From the IMG/VR virus record IMGVR_UViG_3300029705_003489: DNA of 64,000 bases. One strand, written 5' to 3'. The stretch is from an uncultured virus (IMG/VR IMGVR_UViG_3300029705_003489) (Duplodnaviria; Heunggongvirae; Uroviricota; Caudoviricetes). Shown here piece by piece: positions 1 to 64,000 of the stretch; positions within the stretch are counted from its first letter, which is position 1, and every line of letters begins with the position of its first letter. The notes under the pieces are model-generated. The model ran no database searches, had not been told where the DNA came from, and was given only the letters and a program-made list of their open reading frames with translations. The position numbers and the translations under genes were made by a program.

Positions 1-2
1 AA

Positions 3-128
3 ATCCTTCCCGAGAAACATGCAGGAATCGTCAGTGCAATCTTGTTAGGTGACAAGGCGGAATTGGATGCGGATACAAAAACTTTGTATCAGAAAAACGG
101 AATTGCACATATACTGGCAATCTCGGGT
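3..128 (+). pseudogene. comEC: 5' fragment of ComEC competence protein (runs in from outside the window), interrupted by the element
   Basis: Frame from base 3 reads ILPEKHAGIVSAILLGDKAELDADTKTLYQKNGIAHILAISG, matching the ComEC Competence-domain LLG and G..H..AISG motifs; it then continues into unrelated sequence and stops at TAA 198-200. Confidence 0.93.
124..127 (+). repeat. Left attachment core CGGG
   Basis: ATC TCG GG|T GTT at the left junction versus G GCG GG|C TTG CAT at the right; joining gives ATC TCG GGC TTG CAT = ISGLH. Confidence 0.8.
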
Positions 129-291
129 GTTCAATGTCGCATCTTTGGAAAAAGTGTAACTCGCAAGAATGGCTTAAAACGGGCATTTGTAGGCTGTTAA
201 AATCGAAAAGTTACAGAATTAGTGGACTTTAGTTTGTAAAAGTTTTTTGGAAAAGTGTTTCGTGAATATGTAAATATTGGTGCTTTGTACT

Positions 292-342
292 ACCTTGGCA
301 CAAAAGCAAATTTGCTTTTCAAGGGGTCAAACCTTGGCACAA
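292..342. repeat. Direct repeat ACCTTGGCACAA (292-303, 331-342) bracketing a perfect 18-bp palindrome AAAAGCAAATTTGCTTTT (302-319)
   Basis: Read directly, immediately upstream of the SymE-like ORF. Confidence 0.75.
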
Positions 343-357
343 TAATAAGGAGGAAAA

Positions 358-537
358 ATGCGTAAGAAAAAGACAAATAGACAGTTAAAAGTAATAGAGC
401 AATCTGGATATAAATACAAGCCAACACCGACTATTATTCTGAAAGGACAGTGGTTACAGGACTTTGGATTTGAGATAGGAGATATTGTGGAGGTAAAATG
501 TATGAATTCAAAAATGGAAATTATATTGCAAAAATAA
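358..537 (+). CDS. SymE-family (type I TA) toxin-like protein, 59 aa, not in the ORF track
   Basis: MRKKKTNRQLKVIEQSGYKYKPTPTIILKGQWLQDFGFEIGDIVEVKCMNSKMEIILQK; P.I.LKG.WL...GF..G..V.V SymE signature; AGGAGG RBS. Confidence 0.8.
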   Translation: MRKKKTNRQLKVIEQSGYKYKPTPTIILKGQWLQDFGFEIGDIVEVKCMNSKMEIILQK

Positions 538-565
538 TTGCATTGTGAGAAAAATGTCAAAAATC

Positions 566-593
566 TTGAAAAACTACTATTTTGTGATATACT
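566..593 (+). promoter_or_regulatory. sigma-A-like promoter of the R-M operon
   Basis: TTGAAA-16 bp-TATACT with extended -10 TG. Confidence 0.55.
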
Positions 594-627
594 AATGACA
601 GGTAAATTACAAGGAGGTTACAGGTTA

Positions 628-846
628 ATGAGTTTTAGTGAAGAAATTAAGCTAACACGTCAGAAATCATTTATGACTCAAGATCAGTTTGCGAGAGAAA
701 TTGATGTATCAGTTGCAACCATTAATCGATGGGAAACAGGAAAAGCGCGTCCAAATATAACTGCGATTAAGCGTATCAAATCTTTTTGCAATACAAATAA
801 TATGCCATTTGAAAAGTTGGAAAGTGAATGGCTTAAAGGGATATAA
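628..846 (+). CDS. XRE-family HTH regulator (possible R-M controller protein)
   Basis: MTQDQFAREIDVSVATINRWETGK HTH; AGGAGG RBS before ATG 628; heads the MTase operon. Confidence 0.8.
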   Translation: MSFSEEIKLTRQKSFMTQDQFAREIDVSVATINRWETGKARPNITAIKRIKSFCNTNNMPFEKLESEWLKGI

Positions 847-887
847 CTATAAGATAACGAATATTAAGAACAAGGAAGGACATATTC

Positions 888-2141
888 ATGGAAAAAAGGC
901 TATCAACTAATCAAAAGCCTAATTACAAAAATCTTTCGCATTATCTTAATCAGCAGCATGATGAGGAGTATGCATTACTTAGCCACTATATTCAATTACA
1001 AGGTAGCAGCGAGGCGGCTGAATACAAAAGAATACTGTTAGAACATGGGAATGAAGTTGAAAATTTGCCTTCTGCTAATAGCTTTAATAAGGAATTTGAT
1101 ATTCCCTTTGTAAGTAGTAACGAACCGAAATTCACCTTTATTGATTTGTTTGCAGGAATTGGTGGTTTTCGTATGGCTATGCAGAATCATGGGGGGAAAT
1201 GTGTGTTCTCATCTGAATGGGATGAAGCCGCAAAACAAACATATTTCGAGAACTATGGAGAAGTACCATTCGGTGATATTACTAAACCTGAGATAAAAGC
1301 ATTGATTCCTCAAAAATTTGATGTTCTTTGTGCCGGTTTCCCATGCCAACCATTTAGTTATTCTGGACAAAAGCTGGGTTTCAAAGATAAAACAAAAGGT
1401 ACTTTGTTTTTTGATGTGTGTGAAATACTGAAAGCTAGACAACCTCAAGCGTTTTTTTTGGAAAATGTTAAAGGTATTGTCTCTCATGAAAACGGAAAGA
1501 CAATAGAGACTATACGAAATATCTTGACTGATGAACTAGGTTATGATATTCACGAATGTGTTTTGAGTTCCTTGGATTTTGGATTGCCACAAAAACGAGA
1601 ACGGTGGTATTGTGTTGGGTTCAAAAAGAAAACCGAATTTGAATTTCCTAAAGGCATGGGAAAGGCTGCCGTACTCAGAGACATTATCGACCTAGATAAT
1701 AACGACCCTTCTCTGGCTCTTCCAAAGTTTGAACTGGACCGTATTAAGTATCATTTTGAGCATGCTCATGAAATTAGAGTTAAACACGATAACTCCAAGT
1801 ATGCGCCAAACACTAAAAAAGGAAAATATGGTGTGTATTCATTCCAAAAGCCTGATGGTAGTTTGCGATTTCATGTGGGAGACCCTGCAAAAACACAAAT
1901 TCAAGAGGCGTTTTATTCGTGTTTAGATTCGTATGCTTCAACAATTATAGCGAATCGTACACCAAAACTTTGGGACATTGAAAGAAAGCTATCTGTTCGT
2001 GAATCTGCTAGATTGCAGGGATTTCCGGATGATTTTAAGATACCGGTTTCTGCTGCACAAGCATACAAACAATTTGGAAATTCCGTATCGGTTCCAGTTT
2101 TAACAGAAATTGTTAAAAGAATGATTAACCATCTTGAGTAG
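888..2141 (+). CDS. DNA (cytosine-5) methyltransferase of the R-M system
   Basis: Motifs DLFAGIGG, GFPCQPFS, ENVKG, QKRER, RLQGFP, YKQFGNSV. Confidence 0.95.
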   Translation: MEKRLSTNQKPNYKNLSHYLNQQHDEEYALLSHYIQLQGSSEAAEYKRILLEHGNEVENLPSANSFNKEFDIPFVSSNEPKFTFIDLFAGIGGFRMAMQNHGGKCVFSSEWDEAAKQTYFENYGEVPFGDITKPEIKALIPQKFDVLCAGFPCQPFSYSGQKLGFKDKTKGTLFFDVCEILKARQPQAFFLENVKGIVSHENGKTIETIRNILTDELGYDIHECVLSSLDFGLPQKRERWYCVGFKKKTEFEFPKGMGKAAVLRDIIDLDNNDPSLALPKFELDRIKYHFEHAHEIRVKHDNSKYAPNTKKGKYGVYSFQKPDGSLRFHVGDPAKTQIQEAFYSCLDSYASTIIANRTPKLWDIERKLSVRESARLQGFPDDFKIPVSAAQAYKQFGNSVSVPVLTEIVKRMINHLE

Positions 2142-2152
2142 GAGGATGAATA

Positions 2153-4150
2153 GTGATGTATTATTTTACACCAGATACAATATTCCAAGCTAATAAAAAT
2201 ATTGAAGCTCTTGACCCAAAAGTAGGTGGATTGCTATGCGTTTTACACTGTTTAGTGGATGATATCGAGGAAAATATTAGTTATACCGTTGATGGTGAAC
2301 GATTACGTAAACAATTAAGTCTGGTTTTTGATAAGGAGCCTAGAGATTCTTTTGAAAATGCGAAGGCTAGTTATATTATTTTTGCAAGAAATTGGGTGCA
2401 AACTTTCTTTGATACTTGTATCAAAAATAAAATTGATTTGCTGTCATGTGCAGTATTTTTCTTGAGAAGGAATGGTTTCGAAAGAGAATATACTAAAGAG
2501 GAAATCATTGATATTTTCATTGATCGTTTTCATTTAGTAAATTATAAAGAATATTGGTTCTACGATGGTAACAAGGTTGAACTCACATACAATCAGCAAA
2601 ATGTTGAAGATAATCAAGCGGAGTTTTATAGTAAGATGAACTATACTACTGACTTTAAATCCATTCTTTTTCGTAATGTGATTCAAAAGTCAGCTGCGGA
2701 CTTAAAAGCTGCAGGTCAAATTCAAACGCTTTACTCAGGCTCCAGCATCCACACATGTTTTCTTCTGTCAGATGAATCACTTGACCAGTATTATGTTATG
2801 AGTAATTCAATTCATAGCCGAGGAAATCAATGCACTATAGAAAAATACACTGGAATTAGAAACAGCGATGATGAAAATGCAGAATTTAGAACGGGTCTTG
2901 ATATTTCATATGAACGAAATCGTATCGTTTTTGGTGCACCGGGTACAGGAAAAAGCCATTTGCTAAAAGATGATGTAAAGAAAGTTACGGATTCTTACGG
3001 TGGAACCGTAGTTGAAAGAGTAACATTCCATCCAGAATATAGTTATTCTCAGTTTGTAGGTACATATAAGCCGACAATGATTGAGGCTGAACCTACATTA
3101 CACTTGGATGCAGATAAAAAAGAGGTTCTTGCAGTATTAAGAGATAATTCTTTATCGGCACAGGAAAAATATGATCTATTATATGACAGATTTAAAGAGG
3201 AAGGAATTACAAGATTGCCACTTCTTCTTGGATTGTATTGTGATGACAGCTTCAGAACTAAAAAGCAAGACGGCACAGATGCTGTTGGTGATAACAGCGT
3301 AGAAAGAAATCATGGAAGGGCAATCCGACCATACGTTATTCTTGCAGAGAAATCAAAAGGTAAGAGTGAGATTGCGTATGAATATGTGCCTGGTCCTTTT
3401 ATGAGAATGTATGTGTCAGCATTAAAGAGCGCGAGATGTTTTGTACCACAGCCGCATATTTTAATCATTGAGGAAATCAATAGAGCAAAGGTGGCTGCCG
3501 TGTTTGGTGATGTATTCCAGTTGCTTGACCGTGATGAAAATGGTGTTAGTGAATATGATATTCAAGCATCCGAAGATATAAAGAAGTACCTCGCAAAGGA
3601 ACTTGGTGGTTCACCGGAAGACTATAGCCGTATTCGTATTCCAGACAATATGTTTATTTGGTCCACAATGAACAGTGCGGATCAGGGCGTATTTCCTATG
3701 GATACTGCCTTCAAGAGAAGATGGAATTTTGAATACCTTGGTATCGATAAAAATGAAGAAAAGATTACGGGCAAAGGAAAACTTGTTATTGAAGCCACAG
3801 GTGAGATGATTGAATGGAATCGTCTCCGGAAGGCAATTAATGCAAAAATGTCGTCAAGTGAGTTTAAGATTAACGAAGATAAGTTAATGGGGCCGTTTTT
3901 CTTATCAAAGAAGGCAATTGCATCAGATGAAAATGGTATGATTATCGACTCAAAGGCATTTGTTGATGCATTCAAGAGCAAAGTAATTATGTATTTGTAT
4001 GAGGATGCAGTAAAACAGGGTAAGCATCGTTTCTTTGACGGTTGTCCGGATACAAGCAAATATTCTGCTGTGTGTGATGCATTTGATAAGATTGGTATTA
4101 GTATTTTCGGACCTACATTCAGAGAAGATTTTTATGATAAGGAAGATTAA
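2153..4150 (+). CDS. McrB-like AAA+ GTPase restriction subunit (LlaJI.R1-like)
   Basis: Walker A GAPGTGKS, VTFHPEYSY, IIEEINRA, TMNSAD, DTAFKRRW. Confidence 0.9.
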   Translation: MMYYFTPDTIFQANKNIEALDPKVGGLLCVLHCLVDDIEENISYTVDGERLRKQLSLVFDKEPRDSFENAKASYIIFARNWVQTFFDTCIKNKIDLLSCAVFFLRRNGFEREYTKEEIIDIFIDRFHLVNYKEYWFYDGNKVELTYNQQNVEDNQAEFYSKMNYTTDFKSILFRNVIQKSAADLKAAGQIQTLYSGSSIHTCFLLSDESLDQYYVMSNSIHSRGNQCTIEKYTGIRNSDDENAEFRTGLDISYERNRIVFGAPGTGKSHLLKDDVKKVTDSYGGTVVERVTFHPEYSYSQFVGTYKPTMIEAEPTLHLDADKKEVLAVLRDNSLSAQEKYDLLYDRFKEEGITRLPLLLGLYCDDSFRTKKQDGTDAVGDNSVERNHGRAIRPYVILAEKSKGKSEIAYEYVPGPFMRMYVSALKSARCFVPQPHILIIEEINRAKVAAVFGDVFQLLDRDENGVSEYDIQASEDIKKYLAKELGGSPEDYSRIRIPDNMFIWSTMNSADQGVFPMDTAFKRRWNFEYLGIDKNEEKITGKGKLVIEATGEMIEWNRLRKAINAKMSSSEFKINEDKLMGPFFLSKKAIASDENGMIIDSKAFVDAFKSKVIMYLYEDAVKQGKHRFFDGCPDTSKYSAVCDAFDKIGISIFGPTFREDFYDKED

Positions 4151-4152
4151 GA

Positions 4153-5625
4153 ATGAAGATAGTTTCGAGTTACGTTAGGGAGCAGAAACGCTACACTAAG
4201 AACGAACTGAAGAATATTTTTTCCTTTGATGAAGCGGGGGTGGAGAAGTTCATCAAGAACCTCAAGGCCTACGGTGTGCTTAAGAGTGTAAAGAACAGCA
4301 CTGCGCAGCTTGAAATGTCCGATTTGCTTGATGAGGATATAGAGATTACCGATGAGACCGCAGAAAGCGGTGACTGCTTGTATGTGTTTACTTATGTTGG
4401 AGTCATTACTTCTGGCAGCAGAGTTATCAAGGTATATCCGAAGTATCTGCTGTCGCAGAAAGAGCCACTGGCAGAAATGAAGCAAGTGGTAAAGGTTTTG
4501 GAGAGATACAGCAATTCGGAAGAGCAGATAATAAATATCTTCAACGGTGACGGGGAGAACCGTAGTTTTAATATACTGGCTGTTATCCTGTTTCTTCTCA
4601 ACGATTATTATGAGTATGGTATCTACACAAACAGTGAGGATATTATCGAGATAAACGGAGAGGGAGAAATACTGTGGGGCAAGACCATTGATGAGAGTTT
4701 TGCCATGATTGAGGACGGCCGGCCATATTATATGGAACTTTATACCGGGAAAACCGTAGAAGATGATATGGATTATTTCAAGCGACTTCATGAGTGTGTT
4801 CTTACTGAATGCTCCAAGCAACTCCACGATGCACAATTGGATGAGTTGTTCGGCATGGATGAGTTAGTGCTTTCAGAGGAAACTGTGCTTGATTTTGGTG
4901 ACAAGGATTATATCCTTGAGCGTTTGCACAAAGAGTTAAATATACAATTTAATACTCGTAGGCAGATCCTTCTGAAGACTATCTATACATACATTTCACA
5001 GGACAGAAGAATGCTGGAGGAAAACGATGGCATCAGTATGTTTGGTACAACGGCATACTATGCGGTATGGGAAAAGGTGTGTGCGGATGTATTTGATAAT
5101 AAGCTGAACACTACACTTGGTCAGTTGAAAATGACTGTGCCTTTGGCTGATGAGTTTAAGGGTAGGAGTTCCGAGACTTTAATCAATATTATTGAAAAGC
5201 CGAAGTGGAAGGGAACTGATATGGAGGAAGTGGATGCAACAGATACGCTTATCCCGGATTTGATAAGTATTCCACAGATAAACGGTGTGGACTATTTCTT
5301 TATCTTTGATGCGAAGTATTATAATATACAGCTTGAAAAAGGTAAGTCTCTTCGTGGTAATCCAGGTGTTGGAGATGTTACAAAGCAATATCTGTATCAA
5401 TTGGCTTACAAGGATTTCATCAAGGCTCATAATATAGCAGTGGTAAAGAATTGCTTTTTGATGCCTACAGAAAAGAATGAAATTATAAAAAAGGGTACAG
5501 CAAGAATGCCTATGTTGGAGGCTTTAGGATTAGAGAATATCCAAATACGTCTGATTCCTGCAGATATGTTGTACAATTGCTATCTGAGCCGGAAGAAAAT
5601 AGAAATTGAGAAACTTGATTTATAA
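4153..5625 (+). CDS. LlaJI-family (McrC-like) restriction endonuclease subunit
   Basis: FTYVGVI, VWEKVC, LIPDLI...IFDAKYY, DVTKQYLY PD-(D/E)XK motifs; follows the McrB-like gene. Confidence 0.85.
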   Translation: MKIVSSYVREQKRYTKNELKNIFSFDEAGVEKFIKNLKAYGVLKSVKNSTAQLEMSDLLDEDIEITDETAESGDCLYVFTYVGVITSGSRVIKVYPKYLLSQKEPLAEMKQVVKVLERYSNSEEQIINIFNGDGENRSFNILAVILFLLNDYYEYGIYTNSEDIIEINGEGEILWGKTIDESFAMIEDGRPYYMELYTGKTVEDDMDYFKRLHECVLTECSKQLHDAQLDELFGMDELVLSEETVLDFGDKDYILERLHKELNIQFNTRRQILLKTIYTYISQDRRMLEENDGISMFGTTAYYAVWEKVCADVFDNKLNTTLGQLKMTVPLADEFKGRSSETLINIIEKPKWKGTDMEEVDATDTLIPDLISIPQINGVDYFFIFDAKYYNIQLEKGKSLRGNPGVGDVTKQYLYQLAYKDFIKAHNIAVVKNCFLMPTEKNEIIKKGTARMPMLEALGLENIQIRLIPADMLYNCYLSRKKIEIEKLDL

Positions 5626-5689
5626 GAGTTATCAGTTAATTATTGTACCGTTTAAGTTTTTCATTTTCTTGTATATCATGGGGGAATAA

Positions 5690-6946
5690 ATGGAATTATA
5701 TGCATTTACAAAAGTATGCGAATTGTATAATAAAAAAGCAGGTACTGAAATAGCAGAAAACAAGTTAAGAGATAAATTAACAGAAATAGTTGAGGCAGTG
5801 GGAATAGATAATGAACTCCTTAAAGGTGGTAATTCCGTTAAGGATGTAAATGGAAAAACGTTAAAAGGAAGTGCTTATGCTATTCCTAGAGAATCTGTGG
5901 GATTTTTAGCAGAGCTTATTGATATGTATACCACAAAAGATTTTCAGCTATTGAGACAAGCAGAATTTAGAGATGTTTCCGTTAAGGAACTACAATTTTT
6001 GTACAATGGTTTTAGTCGATATTTACTTGGTCGAGGTTATAGTCATGAAATAATTAATCAGCAACAGCTACAGATGGATAGAAGATTGCATTATAAAATT
6101 CGCTTGGAGGAAATTGCGTTTAAGCGCGTTTTAAACGAAGCAGAGGAACTGGCAAGTAATTGTGAGTACGATGCCTTAAATATGAATTATGATGATGCAC
6201 TTTATTTCATTCGTTATATGAAATATAAATTGCAAATTGTAAATAATGAACTTGCAAATGTTTATTACTACTACAATGATATACGTGCTGATGAAATAAC
6301 AGAGAGTGCTGTTACGGAGTGTTCGGATTCAACAAATGAGCAGAGGATTAATAAGGAGTTGCTTTTGGCAGATGCTCTTGAAAAGGATACAGAATACATC
6401 ACATTGCGGAAGCAACTAGAGGAACTTATCGCTGCACCGGGATTTGTTAAGAAAAAAGAAGGTACTTATAAAAAGATTTGCGCTCGATTGGAGTCTATTA
6501 CTCGAAAATACAGTATGGAGTTATTCGGGGAAATATTACGTTCTGATGCTGATAATACAATGATTTTTAGGCATCCATTAAGTGTTTTATCAGAGGCGAT
6601 TCGGTATGAAGCTGAAAATATTGCTGAAAAAGAAAAAGCGAAATTATCGAAGGGAAAGAAGGAACCGGAGATTGATTGGAAAAAATATGGAATTAAACAT
6701 GATGAGCCTCATTCACAAAAGGAAGAAGATGAAATTTTCCTGTTAGATAAAATGGCGGCTAAGATAAAAGGTAAGCTGAAGTTTCCCTGTTGCAATAAAG
6801 AAGTAATTGTGTATAAGGGAGCAAGTGGGAAATGTGCTGTTTTATGCGATTCATGTAATTGTTATTCGATGTTTGATTATGACGAGATGTCCGCAACAGA
6901 GGTTCGTGAACTCATCGGGACTTCACAAAAATTTAAATTGGGCTAG
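5690..6946 (+). CDS. Hypothetical protein with C-terminal Cys-rich (Zn-ribbon-like) segment
   Basis: 418-aa ORF; C-terminal FPCC...CDSC. Confidence 0.7.
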   Translation: MELYAFTKVCELYNKKAGTEIAENKLRDKLTEIVEAVGIDNELLKGGNSVKDVNGKTLKGSAYAIPRESVGFLAELIDMYTTKDFQLLRQAEFRDVSVKELQFLYNGFSRYLLGRGYSHEIINQQQLQMDRRLHYKIRLEEIAFKRVLNEAEELASNCEYDALNMNYDDALYFIRYMKYKLQIVNNELANVYYYYNDIRADEITESAVTECSDSTNEQRINKELLLADALEKDTEYITLRKQLEELIAAPGFVKKKEGTYKKICARLESITRKYSMELFGEILRSDADNTMIFRHPLSVLSEAIRYEAENIAEKEKAKLSKGKKEPEIDWKKYGIKHDEPHSQKEEDEIFLLDKMAAKIKGKLKFPCCNKEVIVYKGASGKCAVLCDSCNCYSMFDYDEMSATEVRELIGTSQKFKLG

Positions 6947-6957
6947 TCTTATTTAAG

Positions 6958-7016
6958 AAAAAATGAAACAGGCCAGAAAGCTAATTATTGGTTTTCTGGC
7001 CTGTTTCATTTTTTTT
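6958..7016. terminator. Bidirectional intrinsic terminator
   Basis: 22-bp perfect inverted repeat AAAAAATGAAACAGGCCAGAAA / TTTCTGGCCTGTTTCATTTTTT between convergent genes. Confidence 0.85.
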
Positions 7017-7100
7017 ATAAAGATGCACCCCAATTTTGTTTGAGTTTTCTGGTGTATATCTATGAAAAATAGTGTGGTATTGTAAATAAGTAGTTTGTAG

Positions 7101-7793: not shown

Positions 7794-7942
7794 AATAGTA
7801 TTCCTCCTTGGAAATGGCATTATTCCGTAGTTGCATATAGTGTAACATAAAAGAAGGAAAAAATGAATAGGAAAAATGGAAGAATGAATTTCCATATGCG
7901 CTAAAAAAAAGGTAAAATTTGAACAGAAGGAGGTGCTGAAAA

Positions 7943-8125: not shown

Positions 8126-8154
8126 AATTACATATCGGTCACTCGCAAAAGAAG

Positions 8155-8732: not shown

Positions 8733-8745
8733 ATGGAGGTTTTTT

Positions 8746-55333: not shown

Positions 55334-55364
55334 CAATGAAAAATATTTGTATTTAAATGAGTTA

Positions 55365-56210: not shown

Positions 56211-56358
56211 TTGGTCTGGGTTGAAAAGATTGGTCACGCACAGTCTTTTCAACCGTTTATGTAATGAAATTAAGGGAAGAATTTGGCATTTTATCTTGCA
56301 TAAGAAAGAAAATATTGTTATTCTGTAAACAGATATTTTAATAACGTGGAGGACAGAT

Positions 56359-57057
56359 ATGAGCATCGAGGAATTCGTAGAAAAATACAAAGATTTTTTT
56401 ATGGCAACGGAGTTGGATGTAGCTAAATCAATTAAGGGAAAGTGGTATCTGTCTGCATATAACGAAGAATATTCTTATTACGATTGTTTTGTGGAATTTG
56501 AAACTGTGGAAGAACTTGTTGACTTAGTGACGAGAGAATGGGCATTCCTTGTGAATTGTGCCATTGATTACGAAACGGATGTTCCAGTATTTGAAAAGAG
56601 TATTGTAGACCAGTTGGAATCCTATACGAAACCGAGTATTGAATATGAGGAATTGCTTTATAACTTAAAAGCTATTGTGAATAGTGAACTTGGAAATATT
56701 GAAATGTTTAAATATTTGGATTCTTTTATTAAACTGAAGCAAAAATTGGGAAATTCAGCCTCAAAAACTTTTCATGATGAAAATGACGAAGCTTGCATTC
56801 GAGTCGGAGAAGAAAACGATGCAAAAGGTAGTGTGGTGTATTATTATTTGCCAGATATAGATGTTTTAGGTTTGATGATAGGTACAGTTAGTTACATTTA
56901 TCGAAATGATGATATGTGGGAACCGGACTTTAATAACTGGATTCTTGACCGGATACATGGGTGTATGGATTATGGAGCTGATGAAAAGTTGTTTAGGGCA
57001 GATCCGGTTAGCAAAGAAGAAGCTAAGAAAATCATGACTGAACTGAAAAATCGATAG
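56359..57057 (+). CDS. Hypothetical protein
   Basis: 232-aa ORF, GGAGG RBS. Confidence 0.7.
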   Translation: MSIEEFVEKYKDFFMATELDVAKSIKGKWYLSAYNEEYSYYDCFVEFETVEELVDLVTREWAFLVNCAIDYETDVPVFEKSIVDQLESYTKPSIEYEELLYNLKAIVNSELGNIEMFKYLDSFIKLKQKLGNSASKTFHDENDEACIRVGEENDAKGSVVYYYLPDIDVLGLMIGTVSYIYRNDDMWEPDFNNWILDRIHGCMDYGADEKLFRADPVSKEEAKKIMTELKNR

Positions 57058-57068
57058 AGAGGTATAGC

Positions 57069-57680
57069 ATGGGATTAGTGTATACATTTTATTCTCCAAA
57101 GGAGGATTGGGAAACAATATCGTTGGTAAAAAATATAGTAAATGCCTTGGGAGGGAAAATAAAAAGCGAGAAAGGACATATTATTAAAGCATCATGGCGT
57201 AGTAAATGTTTTATTACTGTGTTTCCAACCAAGTATACATTTTACATCGGAAAAGATATGGTCAGGGTGGTTACAGGTAGTAGAAGTGCGGGAAACGGTA
57301 CTATGCCGATTACCATGCAGGTTACAAATAAAGGTGTGCAGGCAATTTGGGAAGAATTTATTCTTAAGTTAAGTGAGATGTATCCGAGTGAAGAATTTTG
57401 TCTAAAACCGGGAATCGCAACAATTGATTCGATAAAACTGATGTCTGATGGTGTGGAAAAGGTTTATACTTCATCTACTTGGCACACTGGCACAATTGGA
57501 GTTGGTTCGTTGTTCTATGGAGGAGTATCTGTTGGAACTACATCTTCAGATTCGAAATTTTCTAATAAGTTTTTAGCACAAGTCCGGTATACCAATGGCC
57601 TCACATATGAAGGTGAATTACATAAAAACAGTCCGGCCTATCATGAAATTATGGCAAATTTAAGTTTATACGAAAAATAG
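57069..57680 (+). CDS. Hypothetical protein
   Basis: 203-aa ORF, GAGG RBS. Confidence 0.7.
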   Translation: MGLVYTFYSPKEDWETISLVKNIVNALGGKIKSEKGHIIKASWRSKCFITVFPTKYTFYIGKDMVRVVTGSRSAGNGTMPITMQVTNKGVQAIWEEFILKLSEMYPSEEFCLKPGIATIDSIKLMSDGVEKVYTSSTWHTGTIGVGSLFYGGVSVGTTSSDSKFSNKFLAQVRYTNGLTYEGELHKNSPAYHEIMANLSLYEK

Positions 57681-57697
57681 ATTGATGGAGGCAATGT

Positions 57698-59044
57698 ATG
57701 ATTGATTCTGATAAATTATATAAAATTGCGGCAGCAAACATAGCAAATCCATATGCGGATATAATTCCATTTGCTCTGCAAGTGGGATATCCAATTATAT
57801 ATTACAGAGGCGTTGCTCTTCAGAAAGATGAAGTGATTTTGTATGTCTTACCGGCCAATGTTTATGATGACAAAGAGAAGGTAGTCGGATATACAGGAAG
57901 TTCTGCCGGAGTTAGTGTGCGAGTTGCTAAGGGAGTAAGTGTAAGAACCGGAGCAAATAAGGGCAGACCAGTACGTGGAAATGTACGTGAGTATGCATCA
58001 GGTGATTTGGTAATTACAAATAAACGATTGATTTTTGTTGCCCAGAAAAAAGGATTCGATATTAGTGTTAGTAAAATAACGGCTGCAAAAATACTCGATA
58101 AGCAGAGCTTTATGGTACAGACAGGCGGCGTAGCAAAAAATATTATTGTTGATGAAGCATTGACTGCATACGCATTGGCACTGATTGATCATGCTGTGAG
58201 TTCATATACTAACGGAAAAGATTTGTATAACGGTTATCAGCTTGTGCAAAATAATATGACGGTAGAGCAAAAGCAGATGTGTGCAGATGTGAAAAAAAGT
58301 GCAGAATCCGTAAAAATAAAAAAGAAGAGAGCAAAGAAGGGTGGTTGTTTAATTCCTGTACTGTGCGTTATTGCAATTTTTGCAGTATGCGTGGTTGTCG
58401 GTATTACTTCTTCATCTAAAAATAAAGAAAAGGAACAGCCAGAGGAATCTGTACAATTATCTGCCCGAACAGATGAGGAACTGATACTTTTGGAAAATCA
58501 TCCAAGGATATGTGATGAGTTATCGGTGGCTAAGGAATTTGTGGACGGACTATGTGATGACCGAGTTTGTATTGTGTATACAGAGGCAGGAAAGACAGCG
58601 ACCATTGATGAGGAAGAACCGTATGAGGATGCAGTTGTTACGTACCATAGAGATGCCTCAACAAATAAACACATAGGTTGGTTCGAGATAGAAATAAAGG
58701 ATAGTGAATTTGCAACTAATATGACTGTAGAGCAGGCAGTGGAAATTGCAATGTCATATTTACCAGAGAATTTTAAGGAAATTTATCAATGCGATGAATC
58801 ATATATCCGAGATGGAGAAAAGTCGATTGTGTATACTTATGCCATGAGATTGCACCCTGCCGGAATTGAATTTCATAATAACGGCAATCAGCATTATCCG
58901 AATTATTTGAGTTTTTATATTGTGGATTATACAGAAGAAAATAAGTGGACAATAAAATGTGACTTCAGTGCAAACGGTGGTAAAGGAATAGGTTGGATTG
59001 AAAAATATGCTGAACCGTGGAATATTACAATTATTGAAGAATAA
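57698..59044 (+). CDS. Membrane protein (cytoplasmic PH-like N-terminus, single TM, extracellular domain)
   Basis: GVSVRVAKGVS, GDLVITNKRLIF; TM LIPVLCVIAIFAVCVVVGI. Confidence 0.7.
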   Translation: MIDSDKLYKIAAANIANPYADIIPFALQVGYPIIYYRGVALQKDEVILYVLPANVYDDKEKVVGYTGSSAGVSVRVAKGVSVRTGANKGRPVRGNVREYASGDLVITNKRLIFVAQKKGFDISVSKITAAKILDKQSFMVQTGGVAKNIIVDEALTAYALALIDHAVSSYTNGKDLYNGYQLVQNNMTVEQKQMCADVKKSAESVKIKKKRAKKGGCLIPVLCVIAIFAVCVVVGITSSSKNKEKEQPEESVQLSARTDEELILLENHPRICDELSVAKEFVDGLCDDRVCIVYTEAGKTATIDEEEPYEDAVVTYHRDASTNKHIGWFEIEIKDSEFATNMTVEQAVEIAMSYLPENFKEIYQCDESYIRDGEKSIVYTYAMRLHPAGIEFHNNGNQHYPNYLSFYIVDYTEENKWTIKCDFSANGGKGIGWIEKYAEPWNITIIEE

Positions 59045-59053
59045 GGAAAATGT

Positions 59054-59452
59054 ATGGAAAATACGCAGATAAAATTAATAGGTTCATCTTTATCGACACG
59101 TACAGCGACTATTTTGTGGAGAAACGGAATCTCATATTTACATGAACTCACTAATTACTGTGAAGAAACATTAGTGGAGTTACGGAATATTGGTCCCAAT
59201 GCAGTGGAAGAAATTAAGGAGTTTTGTTTCAAATATGGGGTACATATCTTTAACCGAGAAGCACTACTTTGTGAGGAGATTGGAATTGAGTTGACTCCGG
59301 CAGAGTATGCAAAGGTCTTCAAGTATGGTATATCTGATAAACAGGATTTGTTTGATACAGATGGTGTTTTACTGGAACGCGAGTTTGGTGCAAATTCGGT
59401 TCTGTGCAAAAAACTAAAAAAAATAAAATTGCATATGTATGAAGGACTTTGA
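59054..59452 (+). CDS. RNA polymerase alpha-CTD-like protein
   Basis: LSTRT...L.RNGI..L.EL....EE.L..LRNIG..A..EI. Confidence 0.75.
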   Translation: MENTQIKLIGSSLSTRTATILWRNGISYLHELTNYCEETLVELRNIGPNAVEEIKEFCFKYGVHIFNREALLCEEIGIELTPAEYAKVFKYGISDKQDLFDTDGVLLEREFGANSVLCKKLKKIKLHMYEGL

Positions 59453-59487
59453 AGTTAAATATTGAGAATAGGCGAGGAATATTGACA

Positions 59488-60396
59488 ATGAAAAACAAGA
59501 TTAAAATTATAGCAGTTTCTGTGCTTTTTGTACTAGGATTAGTTGGAATGATAGCTTGCGGTACTGATTCAAATAAAACACTACATAATATTGATTTTAT
59601 TGAGGGCAAGTTGATTAACTACAATGATACGGAATATGCAGCAGCTTTCTTTAATTATACAAATGCTAGTGAAGCAACTGCCATGCCTTGTGATTTTATT
59701 GATGTAAAGGCTTTCCAGAATGGTATTGAGCTTACAATTAACGTATATACTGGACAAAGGATAGAGGATGCTATCCAATGTGATACATCAGTCCAATCTG
59801 ATACAACTGCAAAGGTAATATGGCTTTATGAAATTAGGGATTATTCTATAGTAACCTTAGAAATTTCTGATGGAAGCACCTATACATTTGAACTGACGCA
59901 GCCGGAGCCAACGGAAATTCCTGTAGAGATAACAGAAGAACCAGAAGTAGACCCAGTTGTCGTATTTATGGAAGAAATAGTTGCTGCATTTAATGCACAA
60001 GCAAATGAGCAATTAGTTTTTACGGAAGATTTTACACCGTCGGATAAAGAAAATGGGCATTACAGAACGGAATTTCGTTTAAATGCATATAAGGATGCTC
60101 TTGGCAAATCTTACCTTTTAGGGGATAAGGTGGTTGATTTTGTTGCCTCAAAGGATTTCTTTGGAGATATTTCTTTTAGGGTATATACAAATGATACATC
60201 TTGGGAGCAGGTTATATCACTTGTACAGATTATTTCTCCATTAGTAGATAAGGAACTTTCCGGTGAGGAACTGGAAGCAACGATAAATAAAATCACAGAA
60301 AGTAAGTCTGCGAATGGTTTATACTTTGGCAAACTTGGTATGGTTCTGTCTGGCAGTGATGATAAGGGATACGAATTAATGTTAAAGAACGATTAA
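59488..60396 (+). CDS. Lipoprotein (DUF5067-like Ig fold plus second domain)
   Basis: MIAC lipobox; FNYTN...KAFQNGIEL. Confidence 0.7.
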   Translation: MKNKIKIIAVSVLFVLGLVGMIACGTDSNKTLHNIDFIEGKLINYNDTEYAAAFFNYTNASEATAMPCDFIDVKAFQNGIELTINVYTGQRIEDAIQCDTSVQSDTTAKVIWLYEIRDYSIVTLEISDGSTYTFELTQPEPTEIPVEITEEPEVDPVVVFMEEIVAAFNAQANEQLVFTEDFTPSDKENGHYRTEFRLNAYKDALGKSYLLGDKVVDFVASKDFFGDISFRVYTNDTSWEQVISLVQIISPLVDKELSGEELEATINKITESKSANGLYFGKLGMVLSGSDDKGYELMLKND

Positions 60397-60406
60397 GAGG
60401 CGGATT

Positions 60407-62539
60407 ATGAAAAAAGGAAAGAAACTTTGGTGGATATTATTTGGTTTTACAGCAGTAATGACACTATTTTCATTTTCAATAACACCGGATTATGAGGCAA
60501 GTGCAAAGGATTTATTTTTGTATCGCTTTAGTGGCGCTCTTTTATTTGGTGTATTTGCAATAGCTTTTCTCATTCAGACCGATATAGGCGGAATAAAGCA
60601 AAAGTTAGGCTTAGAATCCATAAAGAAGAAAGTATTGTTTTGGATTGCTACGGTTGCAGTAAGCATAACAGCTTTTGGCGTTGTTGATGGTATGACAAGT
60701 GAGGAATTTCGGAATGCAAGAATGTCGCTTACTGTTACGCCGGCTCCAACCGCTGAACCTACGATTACAGAAATAGCAGTAAACGTTGATAAAGCGATGC
60801 CTACGGATGTTCCAGAACCTACAGGAACGGTAACACCAACGGAAGTTCCTACTCCGATTAGTGAGCCGACACCAACCAGTGTTGTGAAGGTTGCTACACC
60901 AACTCCGACACTTGCTCCGGAAGAGACCGATATTGATGGTTATGTCTTTAATTTTGATAATGCAGTATTCGAAGTAAACGGATTGGAAATTACTTTCTAT
61001 TCTGTAGAATTTGAAAAAGAGCTTTCCGTGGGTGGCTATTCTACGATATTTGAATATTCTGTAAAGAATACTGGTACTACAGAAGCAACTTTAAAATTTG
61101 CTACTACAAATCAGTTATATTTTAGTGATGGGGATTTAGCAGTACTTGCAGTACAGGCAATAAATTCTTCTAAGCAAGGATATGAAACCAGTTACCGTTT
61201 ACAACCGGGAGAAGAAACAGAAAAGACTAAAATTCTTTTGACGGCAACTTCCAGTACTACGGATGCACGCATTGATGGTATTGATTATCCTAAGATTACT
61301 ATCGAAAATATTATGTCCACGGAGCCTGTAACGATAGGAATTACTTTTACAGGCTGGGTAAATGATAATCAAGAATCTACAAAAGTAACTTTCAATGTCA
61401 ATGGTGGAGTAGAAGTAAGTCCGATAGATACACCAACTCCTACACCGGAACCTACCAATACACCAACACCAATGCCAACGGTGGCTCCAACGAATACTCC
61501 GGTTCCAGAACCGGAAGTGTCATTAGAAGATAGCTGGTTCTCGGTTATATATTTTAATGTGGGCCAAGGAGATGCTGCATTGGTTGAATGTGACGGTCAT
61601 TATATGTTAATTGATGGTGGAACTTCGTCATATTCCAGTACATTATATTCCTACTTGAAAGAACAGAAAATTGATACTTTGGATATTGTGGTTGCGTCTC
61701 ATGCACATAATGACCATGTAGGTGGACTTGCAGGTGCTTTAAATTATGCTAAGGCTGATTTGGTATTGTGTCCGGTAACGGAATACGACACGGATGAGTT
61801 CCGAGCATTTAAGAAATATGCAGAGAAGAATGGTCCCGGTATTACAGTACCGGAAGTCGGAGATACATATCGGCTAAGTAATGCTACGGTTACAATCAAT
61901 GGTGTAAATGCCGGTGCTGATAATGATACATCGATTGTTATGACTGTTGAATACAGAGGAGAAAAATTTGTATTCACAGGTGATGCAGAGTATGCTGCAG
62001 AAGTGGCTGCGGTAAAGAATATCGAAGGTCCTGTAATGGCATTAAAGGTAAGCCATCACGGAAGTGATACATCATCTACATATCAGTTTTTACGTGAAGT
62101 TGCTCCGATTTATGCTGTAATTTCATGTGGTTATGGAAATGAGTATGGCCATCCAACAGAAACGGTGTTGAGCCGACTTGATGATGCAGATGCTGAAATA
62201 TTAAGAACTGATTTACAGGGAGATATTTATTTCGAATATACCGAAGGTGAGTGGTATTACGGATATGAAACGGAAGTGGATTATGCACTTATTTTAACAC
62301 CGGGTAGTTCATTTGTGGCTGATACAGGAGACACTGATACAGAAACCACTGTCGATAGAAACAACACATCTACTTCTGGTGCAGATTATATCGGCAATGC
62401 AAACAGTATGGTATTTCATTATCCGGGATGTTCCAGTGTAAAGCGGATGAAGGAATCTAATAAGCGCTATTACGAAAATGTAACAAGAGAAGATATGATA
62501 AATAAGGGTTATAAGCCATGTGGTAATTGTAATCCGTAA
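60407..62539 (+). CDS. Membrane-anchored ComEC/Rec2-like metallo-beta-lactamase hydrolase with PT-rich linkers and C-terminal Ada-like Zn site
   Basis: 3 N-terminal TMs; VGQGDA, SHAHNDHVGG, TGDAE, SHHGS, ISCG..N.YGHP; FHYPGC...GYKPCGNCNP. Confidence 0.88.
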   Translation: MKKGKKLWWILFGFTAVMTLFSFSITPDYEASAKDLFLYRFSGALLFGVFAIAFLIQTDIGGIKQKLGLESIKKKVLFWIATVAVSITAFGVVDGMTSEEFRNARMSLTVTPAPTAEPTITEIAVNVDKAMPTDVPEPTGTVTPTEVPTPISEPTPTSVVKVATPTPTLAPEETDIDGYVFNFDNAVFEVNGLEITFYSVEFEKELSVGGYSTIFEYSVKNTGTTEATLKFATTNQLYFSDGDLAVLAVQAINSSKQGYETSYRLQPGEETEKTKILLTATSSTTDARIDGIDYPKITIENIMSTEPVTIGITFTGWVNDNQESTKVTFNVNGGVEVSPIDTPTPTPEPTNTPTPMPTVAPTNTPVPEPEVSLEDSWFSVIYFNVGQGDAALVECDGHYMLIDGGTSSYSSTLYSYLKEQKIDTLDIVVASHAHNDHVGGLAGALNYAKADLVLCPVTEYDTDEFRAFKKYAEKNGPGITVPEVGDTYRLSNATVTINGVNAGADNDTSIVMTVEYRGEKFVFTGDAEYAAEVAAVKNIEGPVMALKVSHHGSDTSSTYQFLREVAPIYAVISCGYGNEYGHPTETVLSRLDDADAEILRTDLQGDIYFEYTEGEWYYGYETEVDYALILTPGSSFVADTGDTDTETTVDRNNTSTSGADYIGNANSMVFHYPGCSSVKRMKESNKRYYENVTREDMINKGYKPCGNCNP

Positions 62540-62562
62540 CTAACCAAGAGGGAGAAACAAAA

Positions 62563-62898
62563 ATGAAAAGAATTTATGTAATTTTAGTATCAGTATTATT
62601 AGTCATGACTTTGGTAGCGTGTGGAGGTCAGAAAATAACAGTGGATTTTGAAAATGAGGTGGACTTCGAAGTTGCGCTTAATGCCGGAGAAGATGTAACT
62701 GGAAAAGTTGTGACATTTACTGTTAAGGAACTTGTACCCAATAGTGCATTTGGATATAATCTTCAAGCAGGAGAGCATTTGAATTTTTGCTCGGAAAAAA
62801 ATCCAGGTGCAAAGGCGGGAGAGGTCGTAACAGCTAGGGTAACAGAGGTGTCATCTATGCTTGGTTCATACATAATTACATATGAAATAGTTGATTAA
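62563..62898 (+). CDS. Small lipoprotein (possible OB-fold)
   Basis: LVAC lipobox; GKVVTFTV...GEVVTARV. Confidence 0.7.
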   Translation: MKRIYVILVSVLLVMTLVACGGQKITVDFENEVDFEVALNAGEDVTGKVVTFTVKELVPNSAFGYNLQAGEHLNFCSEKNPGAKAGEVVTARVTEVSSMLGSYIITYEIVD

Positions 62899-62989
62899 AA
62901 AGTGTTTTACTGCGAATATAACTTGATATTTTCGTTGGATTGAGCGTTACTATGAATACCTAATGATAGGTAAGAAAGGAGTATGCTCT

Positions 62990-63415
62990 ATGACAGAAAT
63001 TCAAGGAATGCAGATTTTGAGTTTACGCAAACAAGGACTTGGTTATAAGCAGATTGCTTCGATGGTTAGTGTCTCTCGTGATTCTGTTCGCAGTTATTGT
63101 AAATGCAGAGGATTGGGAGGATATCAGGCAGCAACACAAGTCAATATGAAAGAACTATTGAAGCGAGGCGAAGCCTGTAGTTTCTGTGGAGGGACTATCA
63201 AGAAAGCAACAACAGGCAGACCAAAGCGATTCTGCTGCGATGAATGCAGAATGAGATATTGGAAAGGACACCGAAGTGAAGTGAAAAGAAGTCCCAGTGC
63301 GATTTATATCCGGGAATGCCCTTACTGTAAGGAGATATTTGAAGTGTATGGTAATAAAACGCAGAAATATTGCTGCCATGACCATTATATAAAGGACAGA
63401 TTTTATCAAGAATAA
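62990..63415 (+). CDS. HTH + Zn-finger protein (copy 2, paralogue of 20150)
   Basis: About 80% identical to 20150..20602 by manual alignment. Confidence 0.88.
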   Translation: MTEIQGMQILSLRKQGLGYKQIASMVSVSRDSVRSYCKCRGLGGYQAATQVNMKELLKRGEACSFCGGTIKKATTGRPKRFCCDECRMRYWKGHRSEVKRSPSAIYIRECPYCKEIFEVYGNKTQKYCCHDHYIKDRFYQE

Positions 63416-63437
63416 AACAGAATAATTCCAATTACGA

Positions 63438-63474
63438 GAAGATGGAACCCCCATTTTTGGGGGTATCCATCTTT
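63438..63474 (+). terminator. Intrinsic terminator shielding the right junction
   Basis: AAGATGGAACCCCCA / TGGGGGTATCCATCTT hairpin then T-rich tract. Confidence 0.7.
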
Positions 63475-63581
63475 ATCTTTATATCTTTCGTTCTCAGGTG
63501 CATAATTCGGGGGAATGTTGTCATATGAACATATATTGCAGAATATCGGAGAAGTAAAAGGGTAAATATAAAGGAATTAGG

Positions 63582-63585
63582 CGGG
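63582..63585 (+). repeat. Right attachment core CGGG
   Basis: Directly precedes C TTG CAT ATT TCG (GLHIS) of comEC. Confidence 0.8.
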
Positions 63586-64000
63586 CTTGCATATTTCGAT
63601 GCTGTGCATGGGATTGTTCCGGATGCTTCGGAAAATGACGGTACCGCTTCGGTTATCTGTGGCGATAGCTTCGATATTTTTAATGTTCTATGTAATCTTC
63701 ACCGGAGCAAGTACTTCGTCGGTCAGAGCGGCAATTATGTGCCTGGTTACTTTTGGTGCCGTGCTACTGCGAAGGAGCTACGATTTGCTTTCTTCTCTTT
63801 CTTTTGCTGCTATTGTAGTTACTGTGAGATGGCCTGCAGAAGTAGACTCAGCCGGCTTTCTTCTTTCTTTTGGGGCAGTGCTTGGGATAGCTTTGGCGCA
63901 GGAGATAGAATATGTGGTGCTTCAGACGCGGGAAGGAAAACGTCCGTGGTGGTGTATATTTTTGTTCAGCGGCATGATACAGTGTGTTACTATGCCGGTA
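63584..64000 (+). pseudogene. comEC: 3' fragment of ComEC (runs out of the window)
   Basis: GLHISMLCMGLF...FTGASTSSVRAAIM...RRSYDLLSSL...AGFLLSFGAV; in-frame TAG at 63578-63580 just upstream. Confidence 0.93.

Follow-up and report, generated by a model that had tools for sequence, protein, structure and literature searches.

The window, the whole 64,000-nucleotide stretch that was analysed, holds two pieces of a comEC gene with a prophage between them (Table 1). At the left edge, frame 3 reads as comEC, ILPEKHAGIVSAILLGDKAELDADTKTLYQKNGIAHILAISG, with the codons ATC TCG GG at 120-127, and the frame then continues for 24 codons into foreign DNA before a stop at 198-200. At the right edge comEC resumes with GGC TTG CAT (63584-92), and in-frame stops lie immediately upstream of this fragment, within the insert. 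Translation found both visible fragments free of stops, as the original prediction had stated.

Table 1. Features of the window, with positions, strand and the basis or content of each assignment
Feature	Position	Strand	Basis or content
comEC 5' fragment, its 3' end (...GIAHILAISG)	3..127	+	Translation, alignment to intact relatives; window begins within the gene
attL core CGGG	124..127		Probable crossover dinucleotide GG at 126-127; only GG common to relatives
Prophage	128..63585	nearly all genes +	63,458 bp core to core; Pfam scan of 70 ORFs; collinear with PV036443.1 and MN270268.1
SymE/AbrB-like small gene adjoining attL	358..537	+	Dorea phage counterpart in same position, 55% aa
Left-arm LlaJI-type restriction-modification system	888..5625	+	Pfam; PADLOC MTase_II/REase_II, E down to 0; 5mC methylase 888-2141, AAA_5 subunit 2153-4150, RE_LlaJI 4153-5625
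HTH repressor-like gene	7101..7796	-	Divergent from early operon starting near 8223
Early region	8223..27666	+	71-86% aa identity to Dorea phage; DUF2800 nuclease, Enc34-type ssDNA-binding protein, family A polymerase, VapE primase, SNF2 helicase, MazF-like toxin, HNH, two methylases, amidoligase/GGACT/Nmad4 cluster
Packaging, head, tail and lysis region	27721..47322	+	Pfam scan; TerS, TerL, portal, ClpP protease, capsid, connectors, tape measure 36544-39162, Dit, tail endopeptidase, GH18 fibre-like protein, holin 45907-46374, amidase 46375-47322
LSR1, large serine recombinase, 507 aa	47486..49009	+	Resolvase, recombinase and zinc-ribbon domains; catalytic YARVST motif; proposed site-determining integrase
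LSR2, large serine recombinase, tandem with LSR1	48942..50336	+	True start probably near 49008
LSR3 module	50412..55721	-	Also occurs in other contexts; HTH 55365-55721, LSR3 (625 aa) 53337-55214, DUF6551 50412-51392, 254-aa paralogue of LSR3 C-terminal domain, 137-aa and 316-aa proteins
HTH gene divergent from LSR3 module	55785..56210	+	Pfam scan
Right-arm cargo, eight ORFs	56359..63415	+	No counterpart in relatives
710-aa protein with metallo-beta-lactamase-fold domain	60407-62539		Within right-arm cargo; matches defence-system MBL models
attR core CGGG	63582..63585		GG at 63584-85; contigs of four metagenome runs stop exactly at 63585
comEC 3' fragment start (GLHISMLCMG...)	63584..64000	+	Translation; no stop up to window end, 138 codons

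A prophage splits comEC at the ISGLH motif

A search for comEC relatives returned nine genome loci, of which eight Lachnospiraceae MAG loci (L004-L011) were examined; the ninth, L012, was an actinomycete match (43% over 44 residues) and was left out. The eight are 59-83% identical to the window's right comEC fragment, and every one carries a single open comEC of 830-878 codons that reads ...GISHILAIS/GLHISMLCMG.... Because all eight are uninterrupted at this point, the window fragments join base for base: nothing is missing, and only the core is duplicated. The insertion that splits comEC is not a chance pattern, and the predicted split exactly at ISG/LH is borne out. PF03772 spans residues 244-507 of one relative's ComEC, which places the split motif within the Competence domain as proposed, and the closest comEC relatives belong to Lachnospiraceae, so the host is clostridial, again in agreement with the prediction.

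The original prediction took the CGGG at both ends as the shared core. These four bases are indeed present 63,458 bp apart, but across nine attR and six attL junctions, the window's own included, attL and attR have only GG in common. The crossover therefore most likely lies at this GG, and CGGG is probably local micro-homology rather than the exchanged core. The crossover is short and non-palindromic and leaves no target duplication, and the core alone is common to attL and attR, as in serine integrase systems. The strings predicted earlier for the empty site and the circle junction equal the arms as read here.

Gene content and relatives of the phage

All standard phage modules are long open frames and a full lytic set is present; the scan of 70 ORFs showed no phage gene with a frameshift or truncation. 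Defence cargo lies near both ends of the insert. The right-arm cargo includes a 150-aa paralogue of the ORF at 20150-20602, and in relatives attR follows about 1.4 kb past the HTH pair. The 710-aa protein was considered as a phage-borne ComEC substitute and rejected, since it has no Competence domain and matches defence-associated MBL models; it was likewise rejected as a resistance gene, as the name of the fold is no evidence of antibiotic resistance. The idea that elements are nested or lie in tandem, with att copies between them, was also rejected, as no internal copy of either att arm was found within the insert. GC content is 0.36 at the arms vs 0.44 in the core; this difference, two repressor/anti-repressor-like gene pairs and the variable right-arm contigs would allow a mosaic origin.

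Of the 46 window proteins queried, 29 have counterparts that follow one another in unchanged order in Dorea phage NatCom_31361 (PV036443.1, labelled Ca. Heliusvirales), with identities of 81% for portal, 83% for capsid, 78% for primase and 86% for the ssDNA-binding protein. The two phages also have in common the comEC codon, the three-recombinase layout, the SymE-like end gene and the LlaJI-type left-arm enzyme (restriction enzyme 80% identical). They differ in their att arms outside ...CG GG TGTTnA and in about 6 kb of extra right-arm cargo in the window phage, whose TerL is 65% identical to that of PV036443.1 vs 77% to those of streptococcal phages. De Jonge et al. (2024, PMC11283538) used nine marker genes together with placement in a TerL tree for Ca. 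Heliusvirales. By Pfam, the window has a DUF2800 nuclease, ssDNA-binding protein, polymerase, primase, helicase and methylase. The words "comEC" and "recombinase" are both absent from the main text of that paper, and literature searches turned up no article that describes comEC as a target in Lachnospiraceae or of Heliusvirales.

Recurrent use of the comEC site

ComEC is present in 394 of 401 sampled Lachnospiraceae species genomes according to a survey with the full-length protein. The survey for lysogens used 120 residues centred on the junction. The same codon-level junction occurs in six viral records and in at least six, and up to nine, of the 401 genomes, showing that the comEC site is used recurrently. 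In six genomes (G019, G265, G080, G109, G134, G186) phage arms can be read at the comEC codon, and in three more (G259, G232, G278) contigs break there. Relatives are assigned to Dorea, Agathobacter, Coprococcus and Blautia. The left end of PV036443.1 carries a ...GHLLAISG/VKT junction and its last bases are ...CCCTAGACG GG A, so both junctions lie within this record. PV036418.1 and four IMG/VR contigs (L031, L037, L040, L044) show attR followed by comEC from residue 277. The far end of G002 stops short of attL.

Aligned across these junctions, the arms follow the consensus ...RACG GG + host for attR and host ...TCN GG + TGTT(A/C)A for attL. Megablast of both window arms against the phage collection gave nothing, or one 4% match. 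The comEC halves are open in other lysogens too, with 3' halves of 536-596 codons and 5' halves of 216-263.

Serine recombinases

PF00239 and PF07508 are found in all three recombinases of the phage, and the serine motif Y(A/C)RVST is intact in each, while at E <= 0.001 LSR1 alone gave a match to the PF13408 zinc ribbon. Full-length LSR1 is 59-61% identical in all five same-site relatives in which both genes of the pair are visible. In eight phages from hosts with intact comEC, the first recombinase of the pair is 38-49% identical, mostly over ~340-370 residues. LSR2 gives no clean separation, at 53-58% for same-site relatives (57-58% in the five with both genes visible) vs 48-54% for other sites. 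The LSR1 pattern points to the LSR1-LSR2 pair behind the lysis genes as the likely recogniser of the comEC site, with LSR1 as the putative main determinant of specificity. The closest LSR1/LSR2 relative, L014, ends in McrBC cargo ahead of any junction, and LSR1 was not readable in the five lysogenic MAGs where it was sought, as the phage contigs are absent from those MAGs.

In this sub-lineage LSR3 lies closer to attR than LSR1 and LSR2 do, at a distance of 1.9 kb in relatives and 8.4 kb in the window, a point against assigning the site to the pair. LSR3 is disfavoured as the comEC integrase, as its identity pattern is the opposite one (77% in G362, where comEC is intact, vs 60-63% in same-site phages) and comEC is nearby at only 2 of 20 LSR3-bearing places, the full 14 kb being inspectable at 10 of the 20. 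The C-terminal domain of LSR3 is paralogous to the next ORF. The LSR3 module is also found without the rest of the phage, and within a different element, one that is 98-99.9% identical across five species genomes; the operon looks like a portable accessory module.

Excision and alternative explanations

Nine sequencing runs were listed, all of them DNA in the form of assembled contigs with no RNA run among them, and four faecal runs were compared with the window. In all four, a Logan contig ends exactly at 63585. The sole host flank in run X4 is a variant that begins 30 bases before the junction, and the assembly graph therefore forks at base 63586. Three MAG contigs likewise end at the GG or within one base of it. 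These contig breaks at the crossover are the sole hints of excision, and the fork would arise just as well if the same phage resided in several host strains with different third bases in the Gly codon. The window flank and the variant flank differ by 13 synonymous vs 5 non-synonymous codons. Mean word depth is 11.5-16.1 for phage right-end contigs vs 2.7-6.6 for host-flank contigs, figures that are contig depths and not copy numbers.

Neither the empty site nor the circular junction of the window phage occurs in any read, contig or record searched, where the metagenome material consisted of assembled contigs from four runs, from which rare forms escape. Exact-stretch scans of viral and metagenome contigs with 26 bases of the right phage arm and 20 bases of the left gave 0 matches each, and the same scans found no second lysogen of the exact window phage. 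Three joints inside LSR3 were set aside as other recombinase genes, their sides being only 20-32 letters long at 90% likeness.

We conclude with high confidence that the insert is one temperate siphophage, to all appearances intact, from the lineage that GenBank files as Ca. Heliusvirales, and that it entered a Lachnospiraceae comEC gene through conservative serine-recombinase exchange at GG. The exchange would take place at a GG dinucleotide that spans the Ser and Gly codons of the invariant ISGLH. While integrated, the phage truncates ComEC inside its channel (Competence) domain, so that any ComEC-dependent DNA uptake would be lost, and the host is probably unable to take up DNA while lysogenic. 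As serine recombinases neither add nor remove bases, recombination of attL with attR would rebuild the exact reading frame. The in-frame restoration of comEC that the original prediction foresaw is thus what the junctions, read with the chemistry of these enzymes, would give. We infer that excision occurs, normally with prophage induction rather than as a host-controlled switch, and that the loss of comEC matters to host or phage.

The original prediction went further and proposed a reversible switch, in which regulated non-lytic excision under defined conditions restores comEC and competence, possibly followed by re-integration. Restoration that is seamless by sequence, comEC halves that are stop-free in the window lysogen and at least five others, flank codon differences that are mostly silent and a graph that forks exactly at the crossover all agree with this idea, but each would be expected just as much if the population were mixed and the prophage an ordinary one, recently acquired or inducible, and the silent substitutions are probably older than the integration. 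Nothing visible places the recombinases under control by the host, and the phage has its full lytic gene set. Natural transformation is undocumented for the host group in the literature found, and nothing in the evidence supports either the switch or a naturally transformable host. The competence switch is speculation, and we regard it as very improbable. Somewhat less remote, though still improbable, is a dead end in which a defective or locked prophage has cost the strain its comEC permanently. Excision was not observed and no candidate recombination directionality factor was identified in the window, as a dead end would predict, but the absence of any broken phage gene from the scan, the catalytic motif kept in all three recombinases and the two open comEC halves argue against it, as does the greater depth of the phage right-end contigs, a weak figure.

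It is also unlikely, if less so than either of these, that the insert is a composite of a phage and one or more elements that entered it, or the same site, separately, namely the LSR3 module, the restriction-modification arm and the right-arm cargo; these need not then leave together. The presence of three recombinases, two HTH gene pairs and lower-GC arms is consistent with a composite, as are the occurrence of the LSR3 module in a different element, the right arm at 56.3-63.4 kb that has no counterpart in relatives, and the fragmenting metagenome contigs, which have loose ends at 57747 and 62539/62556 and vary in the right arm. Against this, holin, amidase, LSR1 and LSR2 facing the LSR3 module form an arrangement that is fixed among the relative loci listed, both outer ends carry arms typical of the lineage, no att arm recurs internally, the SymE-like end gene is conserved, and the Dorea phage has the left-arm restriction enzyme. 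The fixed layout, the typical arms and the lack of internal att copies mean that these pieces are cargo within one phage genome, whatever their origin.

Significance and comparison with known systems

A prophage in comEC, with the gene restored on excision, is a principle already known from streptococci. For a phage lineage described as widespread in the human gut, the comEC codon is a standard landing site, occupied in at least six of the 401 species genomes sampled. Transformation in the gut anaerobes of the Lachnospiraceae is essentially unexplored despite the near-universal presence of ComEC, and the prophage and its restored site would form a natural, precise knock-out/knock-in pair of comEC for testing it. 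With this site, the known conflict of mobile elements with competence gains a case from the gut. Recombinases with a 2-bp core and family-conserved flanks could serve as integration tools in hard-to-engineer gut Firmicutes.

Among other known systems, the Listeria comK prophage (A118/phi10403S type) and the skin and SPbeta elements of Bacillus subtilis are serine-recombinase elements whose insertion splits a host gene and whose excision can put it back together precisely, and experiments have demonstrated that they excise without lysis, at times set by development or infection. Like them, the window phage is a large serine-recombinase element in a gene that, by sequence, can be rebuilt in frame. 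It differs in its target gene and phage lineage.

Competence genes are a broader target of mobile elements: according to a review (PMC12378983), prophages lie in comFA, comGA and pilQ, comEC of pneumococci can hold a genomic island, and comM is disrupted by many elements. Neither gut Lachnospiraceae nor the ISG/LH comEC site is named in the passages of that review on this subject.

The likeness to Phi1207.3 drawn in the original prediction is one of true homology, but not of the attachment site. The streptococcal comEC prophages compared are Phi1207.3 and Phi10394.4 of S. pyogenes and phi-SsuHCJ31_comEC of S. suis. When the window TerL is compared with the phage collection, streptococcal phages rank first, among them members of the _comEC and _rum series. 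By tblastn, S. suis phi-SsuHCJ31_comEC (MN270268.1) is identical to the window phage at 77% in TerL, 71% in portal, 60% in capsid, 53% in the family A polymerase, 54% in the SNF2 helicase and 60% in the ssDNA-binding protein. According to PMC4260502, Phi1207.3 has three serine recombinases, with a tandem pair after the lysis genes, a cytosine-methylation system and attachment at a GA dinucleotide. The window phage has the same number of recombinases, two of them in tandem immediately after the holin and lysin genes, and cytosine-methylation systems are common to both groups. It is not at the GA site of the Phi1207.3 type, and macrolide-efflux genes were not detected in the window by the Pfam scan.

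The S. suis phage cuts comEC in the metallo-beta-lactamase domain, between ...LVLTHT and DADHVG... (the LVLTHT(D)ADH motif, of the HxHxDH type) at about residue 559, with the shared core CCCATACCGA, unlike the window phage, which cuts at GG in the ISG/LH of the Competence domain, at about residue 278. Their tandem recombinases are only 33-43% identical. In MN270268.1 the tandem pair is 0.5 kb from attR and a third, shorter recombinase lies near attL, whereas in the window phage the 5-kb LSR3 operon and cargo separate the tandem pair from attR. Streptococcal and window phages both integrate within comEC, and the core that is exchanged is very short in each. One tentative reading, which we consider possible but doubtful, is that a single widespread lineage has aimed tandem integrases at comEC at least twice, at SGLH of the channel domain in gut Lachnospiraceae and, in streptococci, at the motif with which the nuclease domain binds metal, under selection to knock out uptake. 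If so, selection would act on the loss of DNA uptake itself and not merely on a conserved landing pad, one possible reason being to keep transformation from deleting the prophage, and lysogeny would reversibly set, strain by strain, which gut commensals can take up DNA.

Phage insertion at a conserved comEC motif

The window holds 125 bases of comEC to the left of the insert and 415 bases to the right. On the left the comEC frame ends ...LLGDKAELDADTKTLYQKNGIAHILAISG and continues through 24 codons of foreign sequence to a stop, and on the right it opens with GLHISMLCMGLFRML... at 63584 and meets no stop before the window ends. Nine comEC loci came from a scan that took one genome per species; one of them, an actinomycete match over 44 residues, was left out of the comparison. 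The other eight come from Lachnospiraceae MAGs, share 59-83% identity with the right fragment, and each contain a single open comEC of 830-878 codons reading ...GISHILAIS/GLHISMLCMG... (slash, junction). Because this motif is unbroken in all eight, the window's fragments can be joined to the base, which bears out the original prediction that the insert splits comEC exactly at ISG/LH. The same prediction took CGGG as the recombined core. CGGG does occur at both ends, at a spacing of 63,458 bp, but GG is all that attL and attR have in common across all junctions, making GG the predicted exchanged core and the window's CGGG a probable local micro-homology. A short core of this type is expected for a serine recombinase.

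Recurrent use of the site in Lachnospiraceae

When a relative's ComEC was compared with 110 viral loci, matches starting at residue 277 were found in L031, L037, L040 and L044, with comEC beginning ~1.4 kb past the HTH pair. Dorea phage NatCom_31361 (PV036443.1) has both junctions, with ...GMGHLLAISG/VKT... close to the beginning and ...CCCTAGACG GG A as the final bases, and the same comEC junction is present in PV036418.1.

Among 401 Lachnospiraceae species genomes, ComEC was present in 394, and a junction-centered 120-residue ComEC query matched 389. In nine genomes the query matched twice. Seven of these, with weak scores, are split at this position; G143 and G352, which scored strongly, lay outside the split-comEC check. 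Phage arms were found at attR in G019, G265 and G186 and at both attL and attR in G080, G109 and G134, contigs end at GG or at most one base away in G259, G186 and G232, and G278 carries a different-looking arm. Five single weak matches were also checked: G232 and G278 are 5' halves at contig ends, and G399, G041 and G116 span the junction. Occupancy is 6 to 9 of 401, a lower bound because the other weak single matches and G143 and G352 fell outside the check. The arms share a consensus (attR, ...RACG GG + host; attL, host ...TCN GG + TGTT(A/C)A), and by these sequence comparisons the comEC site is a habit of the phage lineage.

A probable single phage with cargo in both arms

When 70 ORFs were scanned against Pfam, the insert proved to hold a full temperate siphophage gene set, and the catalytic serine motif is present in all three large serine recombinases (LSR1, LSR2 and LSR3).

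Features of the prophage and its junctions
Feature	Position	Strand	Content
attL core	124-127		CGGG
SymE-family small protein	358-537		extreme left end of phage
Left arm			LlaJI-type restriction-modification system
Early genes (Pfam)			DUF2800 nuclease, Enc34-type ssDNA-binding protein, family A polymerase, VapE primase, SNF2 helicase
MazF/PemK-type toxin	18217-18588		no obvious antitoxin ORF called next to it
150-aa paralogue	20150-20602		precedes methylases
Modification genes (Pfam)			methylases, nucleotide-modification-like cluster
Amidoligase cluster	25008-27666		amidoligase, gamma-glutamyl cyclotransferase-like, DUF7698, Nmad4; between methylases and terminase
Structural and lysis genes (Pfam)			TerS/TerL, portal, ClpP protease, capsid, connectors, tape measure, tail proteins, holin, amidase
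LSR1 (Pfam)	47486-49009		in tandem with LSR2, behind lysis genes
LSR2 (Pfam)	48942-50336		in tandem with LSR1
LSR3 operon, facing LSR1-LSR2	50412-55721	-	HTH, LSR3, three unknown proteins (254, 137 and 316 aa), DUF6551
254-aa ORF	52607-53371	-	next to LSR3
LSR3	53337-55214	-	
Right arm	56.3-63.4 kb		eight poorly known genes, including the 710-aa protein
710-aa protein	60407-62539		metallo-beta-lactamase fold
150-aa paralogue	62963-63415		final gene ahead of attR
attR core	63582-63585		CGGG

Lower GC at both arms and the presence of three recombinases in one insert suggested that several elements might be nested here. However, neither att arm is repeated inside the insert, the holin-amidase-LSR1-LSR2 block and the LSR3 operon face each other in every relative among the loci listed, and the whole genome is collinear with PV036443.1, with in-order matches for 29 of 46 queried proteins that include the left-arm restriction enzyme (80%) and the small SymE-like gene adjoining attL. 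PV036443.1 and its sister records are moreover filed as Ca. Heliusvirales, a lineage described by de Jonge et al. 2024 (PMC11283538). From these comparisons we conclude that the insert is probably a single phage whose cargo lies toward its two ends.

The right arm is the sole part private to the window phage, and metagenome contigs fragment within it. Contigs from four faecal runs (X1-X4) continue into unlike sequence at 57747, 62539 and 62556, and their depth falls from ~18-24 (54-60.7 kb) to ~12-16 (61-63.6 kb); phage variants seem to co-exist with different right-arm cargo. Two IMG/VR contigs are 100% identical to the window (~13334-48734 and 48608-59642), and their 127-base overlap inside LSR1 (48608-48734) is more likely to reflect a break in the assembly of a single metagenome than a biological feature.

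The 710-aa protein was considered as ComEC-like and rejected, as its matches are defence-system models, not ComEC. Its metallo-beta-lactamase-fold domain matches LmuA, Avs1a and RT-associated MBL (PADLOC) as well as a functionally unassigned PHROG, its seven neighbors are without any family match, and together they form a candidate defence cassette. The two 150-aa paralogues (PHROG 2308, HTH-like N-terminus) share 76% DNA identity. The amidoligase cluster, which may encode a pathway for modifying DNA or nucleotides, is kept in the Dorea phage (amidoligase 79%), as are the MazF/PemK-type toxin and SymE-family genes.

Which recombinase sets the site

Five same-site relatives carry LSR1 at 59-61% identity over its full length and LSR2 at 57-58%. 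In eight phages that have a homologous pair but whose hosts' comEC is whole (by a junction-spanning match for six and inferred from score for G132 and G293), identity of the first recombinase is 38-49% and is mostly confined to the N-terminal 340-370 residues. LSR3 does the opposite: it is 77% identical in G362, where comEC is intact and an otherwise collinear phage adjoins a rumA-like methyltransferase gene, and comEC is nearby in only 2 of 20 LSR3-bearing places. Because LSR1 identity tracks the site, and LSR3 neither tracks it nor is often near comEC, we lean toward assigning comEC specificity to LSR1, with LSR2, and treat the LSR3 operon as a putative portable accessory module.

The Pfam scan detected no zinc ribbon in LSR3. 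The next, 254-aa ORF is a paralogue of LSR3 residues 392-564 (26% identity, E 1e-18), so that an unnamed C-terminal domain is duplicated as a stand-alone gene, which is kept in relatives. The LSR3 operon also occurs at L152-L156 and at G304:C1:48811-54105 (L170). In the G304-type element LSR3 is ~60% identical to the window's and other window-phage genes are absent; at least 14 kb is 98-99.9% identical across five species-level genomes (G304, G275, G107, G167, G355), which looks like a recently spreading mobile element.

In G362:C309 (L164-L167; 10812-12194 and 12424-19254), the collinear phage has diverged LSR1 and LSR2, and beyond the intact rumA-like uracil-methyltransferase gene that it adjoins lies cargo comprising GmrSD and AlwI-type restriction-modification. 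Streptococcal relatives carry the names '_rum' and '_comEC' after their sites, and this two-site pattern may be repeated in Lachnospiraceae.

Excision and the proposed competence switch

Restoration of comEC on excision would be exact. No empty site or circular form was seen, and scans of viral and metagenome contigs for both phage arms gave no match. Four faecal metagenomes from 2018 were compared as Logan contigs. Each of these runs has a contig whose end falls precisely at 63585, and in X4 the sole matching host flank is a variant starting 30 bases ahead of the junction; therefore the graph forks at base 63586. The second branch may come either from the circular form or from hosts that carry this phage but have another base in the third position of the Gly codon. 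MAG contigs ending on GG, as in mixed populations with and without phage at the site, are equally ambiguous.

Both comEC halves are stop-free in the window lysogen and at least five others, and differences between two host flanks are silent in 13 of 18 differing codons, a pattern as compatible with recent or mobile insertion as with a switch. In a relative, comEC has a comEA-like gene ahead of it and holA immediately behind. Neither our analysis nor the literature search gave any sign that these bacteria transform, and nothing ties excision to host physiology; the proposed reversible competence switch has no support here.

Relationship to streptococcal comEC phages

A full-text literature search found no comEC targeting in Lachnospiraceae or by Heliusvirales; supplements, outside that search, may bear on the point. 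The term comEC is absent from the main text of the Heliusvirales paper (PMC11283538) and from a 2026 preprint on gut prophage activity, which reports that Heliusvirales sub-lineages are active. Mobile elements in competence genes are covered in general reviews (PMC12378983).

According to PMC4260502, the Phi1207.3 prophage occupies a GA dinucleotide site within comEC; its 52.5 kb encode three serine recombinases, a holin-lysin cassette and two systems for C-methylation. The predicted parallel to this phage proved closer than the sequence alone could tell. The best matches of the window TerL in the phage collection are streptococcal phages, and S. suis phi-SsuHCJ31_comEC (MN270268.1, a record including flanks) is a true homologue, with TerL at 77%, portal at 71% and capsid at 60%. 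In contrast, its junction lies in the metallo-beta-lactamase domain (...LVLTHT/DADHVG..., ~residue 559), its core differs from the window's, and its tandem recombinases are only 33-43% identical. By sequence, then, the streptococcal and window phages share a target gene and a phage stock, both already known, but use different motifs; what is new is the conserved motif, the host family and the recurrence across gut Lachnospiraceae.
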